The translations under genes and the position numbers were made by a program. A stretch of DNA of 29,426 bases from Alphaproteobacteria bacterium. GTDB taxonomy: Bacteria > Pseudomonadota > Alphaproteobacteria > UBA7879 > UBA5542. Below the pieces are notes generated by a model, which was not told the DNA's origin, made no database searches, and saw only the letters and a program-made list of their open reading frames with translations. The stretch's first letter is position 1. The number at the start of each line of letters is the position of its first letter. The stretch lies in the NCBI GenBank assembly GCA_048595075.1, contig JBMDXI010000043.1:1-29426 (forward strand), in the 5' to 3' direction. This document shows, in pieces, positions 1,362-28,356 of this stretch.

Positions 1362-1468
1362 TATAGTTGGAAACTTATAAAATTATTACGTCGAAATTCG
1401 TCGCTGGTGTGCGTTAGCACAAGTTCGCTCCTCATTTCTCGTACTCATTTTAAACTTTCTCAGCTATA
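1362..1468. mobile_element. ~107-bp miniature inverted-repeat element (RPE/MITE-like), copy 1, in the tssE-tssF spacer
   Basis: TATAGTT...AGCTATA termini; 9 mismatches over 107 nt versus copy 2 (9887-9993) by manual alignment. Confidence 0.9.
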
Positions 1469-1477
1469 TTTCTTTCG

Positions 1478-1993
1478 CTATATGTCTTTATTATAAGCTT
1501 TTTTCTCGCGCCTGCCAATATCTTGAAAATGTTGTACAGCTACGGGGAATGAAATAGGTTCTAATACATCGCCGATTTTCAGCATACCATGAACTTGTAA
1601 ATAAAGGTTTTGAGTTTGGGGATCATATTGGCTGATTTCAACAGAGACGCTTTCTAAGCGTGGTTCAAATAACTTTAAGCTATTGGCCATCAAGCGGGCG
1701 AGTTTATTCGCTCCTTCAGGGCTAGAAGCATCCCCATAAGATTGGTCGGGGAATCCATACAGATCAGGAAGCCCGTATTCAAGGGTGGAAGGGTCTAAAG
1801 CCTGATATTCTTTCCAAGGGATTTTGCAACGGGTATTCAAAAGGTGGGTGGCTTCCCGCATAACGGACGCGATGGTTTCTTCGCGATTGTATTTAATAAA
1901 GGGAACAACCTCTGCAAAGGTATTCAGGTCATCATCCACAAGCCGATCAAACAGAGGAGCCGTCGTCCCAACAATTGTCCAACTTTTACTCAT
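1478..1993 (-). CDS. tssE: T6SS baseplate subunit TssE (gp25-like)
   Basis: PLFDRL, LLNTR, YGLPDL and FEPRL motifs; position in the T6SS operon. ATG at 1993 preceded by a GGGGG RBS is preferred over the TTG at 2011 in the ORF track. Confidence 0.92.
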   Translation of the reverse strand: MSKSWTIVGTTAPLFDRLVDDDLNTFAEVVPFIKYNREETIASVMREATHLLNTRCKIPWKEYQALDPSTLEYGLPDLYGFPDQSYGDASSPEGANKLARLMANSLKLFEPRLESVSVEISQYDPQTQNLYLQVHGMLKIGDVLEPISFPVAVQHFQDIGRREKKAYNKDI

Positions 1994-2030
1994 AGAATGA
2001 GCCCCCTTCAAGCTTCTTCGCTATAGGTTA

Positions 2031-2684
2031 CTAGCCAGCAGCTATTTGGTTAATAGTAACGTCAAAGCTTGTTGCTATTTGCCCTGTGACTTCTCCGCTG
2101 GTAGAAGTAGAGTGATAGATTAATGTGCCCTTTGTAAAAACAAAACTTAGCTCTAAAAGATATAATTCCATAGAGTGTAAGTTATTGAAAAAATTTCCAT
2201 CATAACGGGAGCTATCCATCGCGCCTTCTCCGACAGCATGAACTTCCCCTGTAGGCCCTACATAATCATACTGTACATAGGGAACGTTAGCGATGGCTTC
2301 AGCAATGCGTGCCTTTTCTAGCTCAATAACAAACTTAGGTTGGGCTGTGGCACCCGTTGCTCCATAGTTAGAAACAACAATGATGGTGATTTTAGGAAAA
2401 ACTGTTCCCTTTCCACAGTGAGCTTTAAAGGCTTCTGCTTGTTCCTGATCTATCAATATTTTAAAATCACTGACACTTACTTGTCCCGTTGAGGCCAGAA
2501 GCCCGTTATTTCCAGGCTTAACAGATTTGCTCATAGAGAATCTATATTTAAATACACTATGTCCCTCTGTAATAGCCCCATTGTCAGTGTTCTCTTTTCC
2601 TGGAACTTCAGGGCACAGTAAATACGCTGAAGCAGTTCTGGATAAGTACGATTTGTTGGGGCGTGTAAAAGTATTAATAGGCAT
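2031..2684 (-). CDS. hcp: Hcp/TssD-like tube protein B, divergent, with N-terminal extension and internal insertion
   Basis: AYLLCPEVPGKE, GQVSVSDFKI, HCGKGTVFPKITI and LELSFVFTKGTLIY...G...SFD segments align by eye with the Hcp beta-strand pattern; located between tssC and tssE; GAGGA RBS. Confidence 0.8.
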   Translation of the reverse strand: MPINTFTRPNKSYLSRTASAYLLCPEVPGKENTDNGAITEGHSVFKYRFSMSKSVKPGNNGLLASTGQVSVSDFKILIDQEQAEAFKAHCGKGTVFPKITIIVVSNYGATGATAQPKFVIELEKARIAEAIANVPYVQYDYVGPTGEVHAVGEGAMDSSRYDGNFFNNLHSMELYLLELSFVFTKGTLIYHSTSTSGEVTGQIATSFDVTINQIAAG

Positions 2685-2702
2685 GATATTCCTCTGTTAT
2701 GT

Positions 2703-25741: not shown

Positions 25742-25779
25742 AAGAGAGTATAAAATAAAAAAACAGGGGAAGCGCTAAC

Positions 25780-25947
25780 ATGGAAAATAGCTTAAGAACT
25801 TATTTAAGAATGATTGGAATTATGGGCCTATTTATGGGAATGGGTATAAATTCTTATAGTTCACCGTACCGTAGAAAAGCCTTGGCAAAAAACAGACAGG
25901 TTGAGAGACGTCTATCTGAAGTGAAGAAAAAAAATACAAGAACTTAG
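25780..25947 (+). CDS. 55-aa signal-peptide ORF; probably the true N-terminus of the IQ protein, out of frame at an A8 tract
   Basis: CAGGGGAAG RBS; MENSLRTYLRMIGIMGLFMGMGINSYS leader; stop at 25945-25947 just after A8 (25927-25934). Not in the ORF track. Confidence 0.65.
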   Translation: MENSLRTYLRMIGIMGLFMGMGINSYSSPYRRKALAKNRQVERRLSEVKKKNTRT

Positions 25948-26068
25948 ATATGCAGAAGAGTGGCTGAGTTTAGAGGATGTTGTAGGGACAGATAATCCTA
26001 AAGATGTATTAATCTCTTTAAAACAGGACAACCCCGTAAACTATAGCCAAATATGTGGCCAAGCAAGG

Positions 26069-28258
26069 ATGCTGACAGAAGATAAAATAGCTAGTTTTGG
26101 GGCCCATGCAAATAAGGCGAGAGATATTAAGAGTTTTTGCTCTCTAACAAAAGGGCGGGCCTATTTTGGGGACATGCCAAGAAGACAAGAAGAAATAAAG
26201 AGTGAAGAAGTTTCACAAAGAAAAGCGCCTCCTCCAGCTCCACGGCCTAGAACAAAACCTGAGGCTCCGGCTCCAACAATGATGCAGAGCGGGTCTGAAG
26301 GACAGAAAGAAGAATGGCTTACGTTAGAACAGTTAATAAACGACGCAAGAAATACTAGAGGACAATTTCAAACAGATAAAGCGACACAACGCTTAGATGA
26401 GATAAAGAAAAGAAATGAAGCTAACTGGAAAGCTTTATGTCGACAGATTAAAGGAATTATAGATGGAGAAATAGAGGCCACGCCAGGAACGCCCCAAGCT
26501 TCCGTATCAAAACTAAGTCTTTATCTTGACGCTTCAGGATTTAATATGTCTGAGAAGTTGGGAAAGGCCGAACAAGGGGCGAAAAAAAGAAGAGAAAATA
26601 CAGGAATTAAGGTAAATCTTCGAAATACAGAAGGTCAGATAGCAGCAGAAGAGGCACGAAAAAGGGCCGAACAAGAACTTGTTCAGAAAGAGTTGGAAGA
26701 AAGGGTACAGAGAGAGAAAGAAGAGGCGCGAATAAAAGCGGAAAAAGCGGCCCGTGAAGCAGAAGAAAGAACAAGGCAAAGAGCTGAGGCAGAGCAGCAG
26801 CAGCGTCTTGAAGAAGAGCAGAGACGAGCAGAAGAGGAGGTTAGGCGTTTAGCTGCGGCAGAGCGGCAAAAGGCGGAAGAAATAGCGCGGATGAAAGCTG
26901 GAAAGAAGATAGCTGCTGTGATGAAGGCTAAGGCTGAATTAAAGAGGTTAAGGCAGGAAAAGAAATTGAAAGAAGATCGTATTGCAGCAGCTGAGGCAAA
27001 ATCTGCACAACGAATGGCAGCCCTACAATCAATTGAAGACCAGCGGGCTGCGGAGGATAAGGCTTTGAGAAAACTCCCCTACGATAAGGCAACAACAATC
27101 CAAGCTGCGTTTAGGGGATATATGGCGCGGCAAAAGTTTAAAGCTATGAAAGAGGCCGCTGCTGAAGAAAAAGCACGTAGAGACGAAGAAGAACAGCATC
27201 GTCTTGAAGAAGAACAAAGACGGAAGGAAGAAGAAGGTAAAGCAGCAACAACAATCCAAGCTGCGTTTAGGGGATCTATGGCGCGGAAAAACTTTAAAGA
27301 AATGCAACCCGCCGCTGCTGCAGAAAAAGCACGTAGAGATGAAGAAAAACAAAGACGTCTGGAAGAGGAACAAAGACGGGCTGAGGAACAGCATCGTCTG
27401 GAAGAGGAACAAAGACGGGCTGAGGAAACAGCAGAAGAAGCAAAGCAGAAAAAGAAAGAAGAAAAAAGGATATCAGGAAGAAAGAACTTCTTCCTTAATT
27501 GGCAAAAATGTGTTTCCCCCCACCTGAAGCAAATTTTTCCCACTCTGCAAGAGATAAATGTGGAAGAAGATGACCGTTGGAAAAGAGATGAACACTTTGA
27601 TAGTGTGGCGCCCGTACAAATAGAAGGTGCAGGAATTTCTGATCCTCATCTTATAATACCCTCACTGAATCTTCTTAAAATACAAAGTAACAACCAAAAT
27701 GATCCTTTAAATTATATTAAAAATGGCGATCTTCTGATGATCTACATTTTAAGGTGGCGTTACATAGCTTGGGCAGACCAAATCAGTCACCTAGATCTTG
27801 GAGAGAGAATAAACGCACTATTAGTGTATTGCCAGAAAACAGGGGTGAATCACCATGTAATGGCTAACATAGAAAAGGCTAGTAAGTTATATGAAAAAGC
27901 TAAAAAAAATAAAGAAGTTATTGAAAAATGGCTGAAAACTGTGGAAGTAGAGAGGGTAGAACAAACTCTTACACACTGGAAAGAAATTTATGAAAAAAAA
28001 ACTAAGACTAATTACCAAGCCTCTCAGAGTACAAATCTTTATGATTATAGGTTGAGTTTAGACTCCTCCAACATTTTTATTTTCGCCAAAACTGTTTATC
28101 AACTATTCCATGTAGCGGAGATTTCTAAACCCTCAACAGAAATCGATGATTTATTTCTTAATGCTTCCAATGCGGAACGTTTAGTAGCCCAGGTTATCTT
28201 TGACCTTGAAAAGAGTTGGGCTTCCACCTGTACTACTATGCCCAAAGAACATAACTGA
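26069..28258 (+). CDS. Coiled-coil protein with two IQ calmodulin-binding motifs; reading frame is open upstream to 25925
   Basis: IQAAFRGYMAR (27098-27130) and IQAAFRGSMAR (27254-27286); long E/R/K/A charged helix; PPPAPRPR proline motif. Confidence 0.8.
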   Translation: MLTEDKIASFGAHANKARDIKSFCSLTKGRAYFGDMPRRQEEIKSEEVSQRKAPPPAPRPRTKPEAPAPTMMQSGSEGQKEEWLTLEQLINDARNTRGQFQTDKATQRLDEIKKRNEANWKALCRQIKGIIDGEIEATPGTPQASVSKLSLYLDASGFNMSEKLGKAEQGAKKRRENTGIKVNLRNTEGQIAAEEARKRAEQELVQKELEERVQREKEEARIKAEKAAREAEERTRQRAEAEQQQRLEEEQRRAEEEVRRLAAAERQKAEEIARMKAGKKIAAVMKAKAELKRLRQEKKLKEDRIAAAEAKSAQRMAALQSIEDQRAAEDKALRKLPYDKATTIQAAFRGYMARQKFKAMKEAAAEEKARRDEEEQHRLEEEQRRKEEEGKAATTIQAAFRGSMARKNFKEMQPAAAAEKARRDEEKQRRLEEEQRRAEEQHRLEEEQRRAEETAEEAKQKKKEEKRISGRKNFFLNWQKCVSPHLKQIFPTLQEINVEEDDRWKRDEHFDSVAPVQIEGAGISDPHLIIPSLNLLKIQSNNQNDPLNYIKNGDLLMIYILRWRYIAWADQISHLDLGERINALLVYCQKTGVNHHVMANIEKASKLYEKAKKNKEVIEKWLKTVEVERVEQTLTHWKEIYEKKTKTNYQASQSTNLYDYRLSLDSSNIFIFAKTVYQLFHVAEISKPSTEIDDLFLNASNAERLVAQVIFDLEKSWASTCTTMPKEHN
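27089..27427 (+). repeat. Intragenic tandem repeats: 156-nt IQ-module duplication plus a 39-nt-period duplication
   Basis: IQ motifs are 156 nt apart with near-identical DNA; CGTCTGGAAGAGGAACAAAGACGGGCTGAGGAA occurs at 27356 and 27395. Confidence 0.85.
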
Positions 28259-28356
28259 GAAAATTTAAAATGAGGACAAGAAATTCGAAGCGAACGTGTA
28301 GAGACCTACGCCAGCGACGAATTTTGATGTGTTCTCTTTATAACGGATTAGCTATA
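28250..28356. mobile_element. ~107-bp miniature element copy 4, providing the stop codon of the IQ gene
   Basis: CATAACTGAGAAAATTTAAAATGAGGAC...CCAGCGACGAATTT...AGCTATA; about 75% identical to the reverse complement of copy 2 by manual alignment; TGA at 28256-28258 lies inside it. Confidence 0.85.

Follow-up and report, generated by a model that had tools for sequence, protein, structure and literature searches.

A 107-bp hairpin MITE family that ends genes with its stop-bearing tips and is probably mobilised by a resident IS630-family insertion sequence

Within 29,426 nt of an alphaproteobacterial contig, four copies of one short palindrome touch the 3' end of a gene, which raises the question of what these repeats are, what moves them, and whether they seek out the ends of genes or simply survive there. 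In the window (the whole 29,426-nt stretch that was analysed), four hairpin elements of ~107 bp with TATAGC...GCTATA tips were confirmed, and three of the four supply the stop codon of the neighbouring gene, as an earlier note on this DNA had reported. Copy 1 (1362..1468, plus strand), a member of the main subfamily, occupies the tssE-tssF spacer of a T6SS operon, where it begins 10 nt past the tssE stop (1478-1480, minus strand; 9 nt between) and lies 66 nt upstream of the tssF start. Copy 2 (9887..9993, plus strand), also of the main subfamily and 92% identical to copy 1, contains the stop of a 1435-aa ORF, which is terminated by TAA at 9903-9905, 19 nt into the element, and whose C-terminal residues IAGNL are element-coded. 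Copy 3 (10237..10345, minus strand), of the GCCGACAT subfamily, contains the pgsA stop, a TAG at 10295-10297 on the minus strand, 51 nt into the element, and copy 4 (28250..28356, minus strand), of the GCTAATCC type and with one tip mutated to CATA, terminates an IQ-motif ORF with a TGA at 28256-28258, 9 nt into the copy. Copies 3 and 4 are reversed relative to copies 1 and 2, with 72-80% complementarity to them. The predicted fold of every copy is a single long hairpin, more stable than that of shuffled sequences (z-scores -2.6 to -6.0). Straw-metagenome contigs aligned over the window revealed no joint skipping an element and no polymorphism.

The four copies belong to a large family, and the palindromic, MITE-like repeat proposed in the earlier note is real: an nhmmer search of the 1.2-Mb draft genome returned 133-167 non-overlapping matches, 100 of them full length and far more than chance would give, and a covariance model returned 117. 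The copies are spread over 100 or more contigs and make up 1.25% of the genome DNA; a second, related MITE occupies further DNA in the same genome, and further small genomes from this order and class carry between 1 and 36 related copies each. A pattern scan of genome contigs from outside the window's own genome gave single chance hits only. The element is an AT-rich, imperfect palindrome of 107 bp, with inverted tips TATAGCTG and CAGCTATA and arms that pair over the whole length. Pairing holds in 80% of pair cells over the subfamilies, compared with 36-45% when the partners are slid, and 19 of 36 hairpin pairs carry changes on both sides; these values derive from a single-sequence fold mapped onto a MAFFT alignment, on which RNAalifold recovered only 12 pairs. 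The element lacks a transposase gene, its sole open frame being 35 codons on the forward strand. Reading inwards, the tips present TAG at bases 3-5, TGA or TAA at bases 7-9, and TAA at bases 17-19, and five of the six combinations of frame and orientation terminate within 19 nt, so that any gene hit in its last codons ends inside the copy. The stop codons in the tips are thus the reason why some genes end inside the MITE.

No transposase was found within the window, in agreement with the earlier note, but the family is not an orphan, because a cognate IS630-family insertion sequence is present in the same genome. IS630-family fragments lie at ten contig ends of the draft assembly, and a six-frame genome search gave Pfam DDE_3 matches at six contig ends; in NCBIfam a fragment matched the IS630 family (E 4e-12), falling under the whole-protein cut-off because only 46 aa of the transposase were assembled. 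Six IS right ends are alike up to ...GGGATCGACTATA and then diverge, while four left ends open with TATAGTCAATCCC... and continue into an IS630-like N-terminus. The IS termini, TATAGTC(A/G)ATCCCATATAAAAGTA, agree with the MITE ends at 20 of 24 and 23 of 32 bases, against a background mean of 10.5 of 24. Of the putative transposase, the first 24 residues and the last ~66 are seen, and no full-length IS is assembled: self-BLAST of the assembly for repeats of at least 250 bp returned no IS, probably owing to its collapse at contig ends, and no convincing complete IS emerged when termini paired at a distance of 0.3-4 kb were sought. A second IS630, from genome G142, ends with the main-subfamily motif ATAAAATTATTA, and scanning metagenome contigs with the IS terminal repeat recovered one contig with a decayed IS remnant of ~200 bp. 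Set aside were an IS630 match on a GC-rich, probably foreign and unrelated contig (C73 of genome G008) and a full-length IS630 in genome G079, which is a different family member.

Short, multi-copy and dispersed, with inverted termini that match those of a resident IS, the element is an IS630/Tc1-mariner-derived MITE, a derivation to which the earlier note had already pointed. We consider it likely, with a probability of roughly 80%, that the repeats are MITEs mobilised in trans by the resident IS630-family IS and that they end genes via their stop-bearing tips. Judging from the shared termini, the non-autonomous MITE would depend on the putative transposase acting in trans from an IS630-family IS elsewhere in the genome, an IS that would be present in multiple copies collapsed by the assembler at contig ends. 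Insertion would occur at TA, mostly within TATA-like sequence, with TATAG regenerated at both ends, and selection would purge deeper genic insertions, leaving copies in spacers and over the final few codons of genes.

Filled and empty sites are evidence that the element has moved in the past, and they also bear on the insertion step. A paralogous empty site lies in contig C123, and orthologous sites at two syntenic loci are filled in genome G003 and empty in genome G006, the G003 copies preceding start codons by 5 and ~26 nt. Duplication of a TA target is the habit of the IS630 family, and all element ends read TA-TAG...CTA-TA. The three empty sites carry TATA, TATA and TAAA, with lengths that fit a 4-bp TATA duplication better; TA duplication fits three of four orthologue protein-end comparisons, the PgsA tail, and two of three flank bases at a nested copy in contig C72. 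The duplicated target would be either TA or TATA.

The distribution of the copies relative to genes was assessed with codon-score ORF calls made for this analysis, whose 5' ends are imprecise. By these calls, 68 of the 100 full-length copies lie between genes, 23 include a stop codon, 4 include a start codon and 5 fall 'inside' genes, all of the latter in the first 5-57 codons of over-extended, spurious or low-scoring ORFs, leaving no credible copy within a gene among the 100. Gene interiors hold 72-74% of the free TATA sites and none of the credible copies (p about 1e-46), a pattern that selection would explain. The earlier note had the elements always landing at 3' ends, which does not hold with 68 intergenic copies and with tandem (head-to-tail) spacers in which 28 copies are nearer the 3' end and 23 nearer the 5' end; its suggestion that insertions are tolerated at 3' ends is borne out. 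Stops are overlapped in 23 of 91 cases, where the expected fraction is 0.14-0.19 for TATA sites or 0.21-0.28 for TA sites if insertions survive only between genes or in a tolerated last 36-54 nt. Enrichment at stop codons stands under the strict null (TATA sites, 36 nt tolerated; 1.8-fold, p 0.004) and disappears under the TA-site null or with 54 nt tolerated, where the 25% seen does not exceed what is expected (p 0.14-0.31), and stop overlaps are therefore at most about 1.8 times the site-count prediction. There may nonetheless be a mild 3' preference or benefit, since a copy lies within 10 nt of 34 of 97 3' flanks vs 8 of 73 5' flanks (p 3e-4) and copies are 2.6 times as frequent in convergent spacers as in tandem ones.

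The same flank counts and the enrichment over the strictest null could be read as signs of active targeting, in which the transposase or the element would seek stop codons or gene 3' ends, so that integration and not selection sets the 3' association; TA in a TAA/TAG context or terminator-proximal DNA could be the preferred target. Contact with a 3' end in all four window copies and, under the TA model, a target no more than 9 nt away from the native stop in 6 of 11 clean cases agree with this. We nevertheless judge targeting unlikely, as many of the intergenic copies lie more than 100 nt from any stop, tandem spacers are split as above, the overlap of stops falls within expectation for TA sites, the two G003 copies sit upstream of starts, and three stop-containing copies out of four in one window have a p of about 0.04 at the genome-wide rate.

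What the insertions do to proteins is modest in most of the genes compared. Judged by the orthologues of LysE, YgjP and Era-KH, the insertions lie 0-2 codons away from the native stop, and in three of the four genes compared with orthologues the protein end is the same or moved by one residue. In PgsA, 16 residues past a conserved Tyr are element-coded, the only clear tail replacement among the genes checked. The remodelling of C-termini put forward in the earlier note therefore goes too far for the most part, with PgsA as the one clear case.

A role after insertion would offer another account of the 3' association. Many copies might have been domesticated, their transcribed hairpins serving as mRNA 3' stabilisers, processing sites or weak terminators in the manner of REP or Correia elements, which would account both for retention at 3' ends and for compensatory changes in the arms. 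The stable folds and strong covariation, the excess in convergent spacers, the position of copy 1 within the T6SS operon, and the conservation of the core TCGTCGCT and of the overall architecture across families of the class are in keeping with such a role. However, arm covariation is also expected if both inverted repeats bind one transposase and spread as subfamilies, the stems are AT-rich and without a U-tract, a terminator scan at copy 1 found no terminator-like site, and no Rfam match was obtained at the gathering threshold or at E up to 1. We hold widespread domestication to be improbable.

Far less credit is due to the idea that this is a Rickettsia palindromic element (RPE)-type or other IS-independent palindromic repeat spreading into coding sequence, a reading that is largely refuted and with it the 'RPE-like' label of the earlier note. 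Size and palindromic shape fit, one forward-strand frame is open across all 35 codons, and the host looks intracellular (T6SS, IQ and CaaX motif proteins), but a credible in-frame internal insertion is absent among 100 full-length copies, the six frames without a stop in copies 2 and 3 gave no match to RPE1 (TIGR01045) or to any other NCBIfam or Pfam model at E up to 10, and the MITE terminal repeat resembles that of an IS630 in the same genome. A REP/BIME origin with mobilisation by RAYT was rejected, as the Y1/RAYT transposase (PF01797) is absent from the five genomes searched (G000, G001, G003, G005 and G008) and the element, AT-rich and 107 bp long, differs from short GC-rich palindromes of 20-40 nt.

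For the preferred reading, mobilisation in trans by an IS630-family IS, the relevance lies mainly in annotation and assembly, and no new mechanism is opened. At ten or more contig ends the assembly is interrupted by the partner IS, and in roughly 30 genes the stop codon is part of a repeat, so that annotated C-termini and 'novel tails' need cautious reading. The family cleanly illustrates how MITEs that target TA and have TAG/TAA tips reach stop codons without special targeting, and how one MITE family can be common to several families of reduced-genome bacteria. A broader proposal, which we regard as doubtful, is that a single conserved MITE, the 107-bp hairpin, was passed horizontally, together with its IS630 partners, between at least eight families of one class and that the stop-rich tips are adaptive. 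The hosts concerned are small-genome, probably intracellular bacteria. If the proposal is true, stop-rich tips make landings at gene ends nearly harmless, so that compact genomes are colonised, and new C-terminal tails are occasionally given to essential proteins, as in PgsA.

Several known repeats resemble the present family. RPEs are likewise palindromes of about 100-150 bp with one open frame in small intracellular genomes; their defining trait is in-frame insertion into conserved genes, whereas the present family has no credible insertion of this kind and no RPE1-model match. The Correia elements have tips that also begin TATAG, carry an IHF site and promoter motifs, and have a terminal repeat of the Neisseria type of 24-26 bp; they are not known to have a cognate IS. 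By description, the Correia/NEMIS elements of Neisseria are also alike in their ~107-bp form, TA at the termini and long stem-loop (PMC2229807). Orientia tsutsugamushi harbors the IS630/Tc1-type ISOt2 with the MITEs mISOt2a/b, again by description a case of an IS630-type IS and MITEs amplified in an obligate intracellular bacterium (PMC2575882), but the Orientia MITE and IS termini are described as identical, while the present ones have diverged (20/24) and form several subfamilies. Coxiella burnetii, an intracellular bacterium, carries the long palindromic MITEs QMITE1 and QMITE2, which extend 1-50 bp into the 3' ends of functional genes and can contribute C-terminal residues together with the stop codon, EnhC in the Dugway strain being an example (PMC5896051); the sequence families are unrelated, the cognate transposase of the QMITEs is not of the IS630 family, and some QMITE1 copies encode small basic proteins, none of which was seen in the present family. 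Another close counterpart is RUP (repeat unit of pneumococcus) of Streptococcus pneumoniae, which accompanies IS630-Spn1 and targets TA and which shares with the present family a length of 107 bp, about 100 copies, a non-coding nature, a long stem-loop and termini resembling those of a resident IS630-family IS (PMC2229807). There is no sequence relationship between the two, the present host has a small genome and is probably intracellular, the duplicated target may be a 4-bp TATA in place of the TA of RUP, and the present family has many subfamilies with co-varying arms and about a quarter of its copies overlapping stops. The repeats described here are thus a new MITE family of a known type, comparable to RUP/IS630-Spn1, the Coxiella QMITEs and mISOt2, and the ending of genes by a MITE is ordinary, documented behaviour.

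Direct reading of the window confirmed four copies of the 107-bp element described in the earlier note, two on the plus strand (copy 1, 1362-1468; copy 2, 9887-9993) and two on the minus strand (copy 3, 10237-10345; copy 4, 28250-28356), each starting with TATAG and ending with CTATA (4/4). Copies 1 and 2 are 92% identical, copies 3 and 4 are 72-80% complementary to them, and each forms a single long hairpin (-20 to -34 kcal/mol; z -2.6 to -6.0 relative to dinucleotide-shuffled sequences). The three donated stop codons were likewise verified from the ORF listing and by direct reading: TAA at 9903-9905 in copy 2 ends a 1435-aa ORF, TAG at 10295-10297 (minus strand) in copy 3 ends pgsA, and TGA at 28256-28258 in copy 4 ends an IQ-motif ORF. 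Copy 1 lies between tssE and tssF of a type VI secretion operon; the tssE stop (1478-1480, minus strand) is 9 nt past it and outside the element. The genome, which encodes this secretion system and eukaryote-like motif proteins, is contained in straw-metagenome sequencing runs.

A profile built from the four window copies with one iteration revealed 167 non-overlapping matches in the assembly (1.205 Mb, 180 contigs, 39.8% GC), in which the window is contig C43; 100 of the matches are full length, and together the 167 make up 1.25% of the genome (15,073 bp). This is an undercount, given that 17 copies are found no more than 150 nt from a contig end. A covariance model accepted 117 copies among 150 scored candidates. 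Subfamilies are numerous (largest n=37, mean identity 87%), their left and right arm motifs co-vary, and median pairwise identity is 66% overall, with 13 pairs at least 97% identical. In an alignment of 26 sequences, 80% of cells in the hairpin are paired vs 36-45% with slid partners, and 19 of 36 pairs harbor both-sided changes. Bacterial miniature elements (MITEs) are typically 100-200 bp long, with inverted ends, TA tips and a long stem-loop, a textbook profile that the 107-bp element fits.

The earlier note found no cognate transposase in the window, a statement that does not extend to the genome. Self-BLAST of the assembly found no insertion sequence (IS), and a six-frame Pfam search showed that six contig ends carry fragments of DDE_3, an IS630-type domain, a 46-aa piece being assigned to the IS630 family (NCBIfam, E 4e-12). 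The six right IS ends (C155:1-203; the starts of C99, C111 and C146; the ends of C62 and C165) share a transposase C-terminus with a ...PPYSPDLNPIE... motif and ~60 nt up to ...GGGATCGACTATA, beyond which the flanks diverge. At four other contig ends (C122:~8449, C81:~9431, C53:~11536 and C26:~137) the left end reads flank, TATAGTCAATCCCATATAAAAGTA..., ATG and an IS630-like N-terminus. The genome thus carries an IS630-family IS in at least six copies, collapsed in the assembly and accounting for at least ten contig breaks. Its terminal repeat matches the MITE ends at up to 20/24 and 23/32 bases, as the search for an IS with matching termini proposed in the earlier note had sought, vs an average of 10.5/24 for other TATAG-anchored 24-mers of the genome; the identification as an IS630-type MITE is upheld. 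In G142, of the same class, an IS630 is also collapsed at contig ends and its terminus, ATAAAATTATTA, is the motif of the main subfamily studied here. No Y1/RAYT transposase was found in this genome or in G001, G003, G005 and G008.

The C155 IS copy has an in-frame TGA within the transposase. A decayed ~200-bp remnant of the IS (82% identity) closes the 36% GC metagenome contig Ga0209655_10010224 (2977-3171), beside an ORF resembling, by eye, a conjugative coupling protein. In the otherwise AT-rich G008, a GC-rich contig (C73) encodes an IS630-type transposase and has another long open frame of ~420 aa; the contig is probably a contaminant of the G008 assembly. A member of a second MITE family, ~170 bp in length and with 40 or more genomic copies, occupies 9996-10165, between copies 2 and 3. 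The ends of this family, TATAG(A/C)T(A/C)AATCAATTTAAAGTGAGTA, nearly equal the right arm of one 107-bp subfamily; hybrid or nested copies of the two occur in C84 and C72. Both families probably use one transposase.

Filled and empty sites were compared in three cases, one a paralogous pair in C123 and the others two syntenic loci at which G003 has the element and G006 lacks it. The empty sites read TATA, TATA and TAAA, with lengths that fit a 4-bp duplication. A 2-bp TA duplication is favoured by where orthologous proteins end, by the PgsA tail and by the habit of the IS630 family; both junctions read TATAG under either length. Two G003 copies (L004:1501-1605 and L037:1502-1609) precede start codons by 5 nt and about 26 nt, and the ribosome-binding region therefore abuts or falls in the element; both loci are empty in the sister genome G006.

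Positions relative to genes were determined against 1187 genes called by codon-usage log-odds score (88% coding), which reproduced the window's Pfam-supported genes. Among the 100 full-length copies, 68 are intergenic, 23 contain a gene's stop, 4 contain a gene's start and 5 lie "inside" an ORF. Because these five all fall in the first 5-57 codons of ORFs that are small and low-scoring or whose starts are probably over-extended, no credible internal in-frame insertion exists among the 100. A copy is present in 21.8% of convergent, 13.2% of divergent and 9.7% of tandem spacers (chi-square p 4e-4); within tandem spacers, 28 copies are closer to the 3' end vs 23 to the 5' end (p 0.58). Copies overlapping or within 10 nt number 34/97 for 3' ends vs 8/73 for 5' ends (p 3e-4). 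In light of these genome-wide counts, the claim that the element always lands at 3' ends describes the window and not the family. Three or more stop donors among four copies have p about 0.04 if the rate is that of the whole genome, 0.23. The reading in the earlier note that insertions are tolerated at 3' ends holds.

The null for stop overlap was taken from free target sites outside the MITEs. Gene interiors hold 72-74% of free TATA sites and no credible copy (p about 1e-46). With candidate sites limited to spacers plus the terminal 36-54 nt of genes, gene ends account for 0.14-0.19 of TATA sites and 0.21-0.28 of TA sites. The 23/91 (0.25) seen among the copies exceeds the strictest null only (p 0.004) and does not differ from the others (p 0.14-0.31). 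At most, a mild 3' preference is possible. Insertion at TA or TATA, after which purifying selection would remove interior copies, suffices as an explanation of the pattern.

The stops themselves are built into the element: in the consensus, bases 3-5 read TAG and bases 17-19 read TAA, the reverse orientation or some subfamilies carry TGA or TAA at 7-9, and one forward frame is open for all 35 codons. Genes ending in the MITE read 3-5, 9 or 19 nt into it, exactly these stop classes, and acquire tails such as I*, YS* or IAGNL*. Only two read-ins are long, 51 nt in pgsA and 88 nt into a partial copy in a low-scoring 67-aa ORF. Five related genomes supplied orthologues for a comparison of C-termini. 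In LysE, YgjP and the Era KH domain, the protein ends no more than one residue from where its orthologues do; excising the element and one TA places the native stop 0-2 codons past the target, leaving these proteins unchanged or different by one residue. For TsaB the comparison is ambiguous. PgsA of 13 relatives continues past a conserved Tyr for 8-19 residues, mostly basic or amphipathic; here the codon for this Tyr is where the element starts, and the 16 residues after it are element-coded, the one real tail replacement. The element-coded tail (10295-10345) is basic and amphipathic, resembling the native tails, a likeness that may explain the tolerance of this single long replacement.

A covariance-model search (E <= 0.001) of 17 other genomes of the order gave matches in G005 (12), G008 (8), G001 (7), G003 (5), G010 (3), G012 (3) and G006 (1), and none in the other ten, a non-match being a search outcome rather than a demonstrated absence. 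Among 150 families sampled across the class, six further genomes (1.2-2.5 Mb) harbor full-length homologues that retain the tips, the TTATAA and TTAAA boxes and the TCGTCGCT core: re-searching five with up to 150 candidates each gave 36 (G139), 31 (G079), 14 (G156), 9 (G150) and 3 (G142), and G029, outside this re-search, has 1. Of all genomes searched, the one studied here shows the largest expansion. In the unrelated 2.0-Mb G139, seven copies on several contigs all score 59.9 bits with the model, which suggests a recent burst of identical copies.

Membership among the Rickettsia palindromic elements (RPEs), to which the earlier note likened the family, was rejected on both features tested, there being no credible in-frame internal insertion and no match of the element's frames to the RPE1 model; Rfam holds nothing similar to the element. 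The 2.5-Mb G079 has, besides its MITE copies, two RPE1 domain matches (C17:22053-22196 and C1:53493-53630) at 27.7 and 25.8 bits, under the cut-off of 30. The 107-bp element adds a member to a kind already known, the bacterial MITE of IS630 type. Its closest analogue is RUP with IS630-Spn1, a 107-bp element of about 108 copies with TA targets (PMC2229807). An IS630-type IS with amplified MITEs is also known in Orientia (PMC2575882), and the Coxiella QMITEs overlap gene 3' ends by 1-50 bp, donating tails and stops (PMC5896051).
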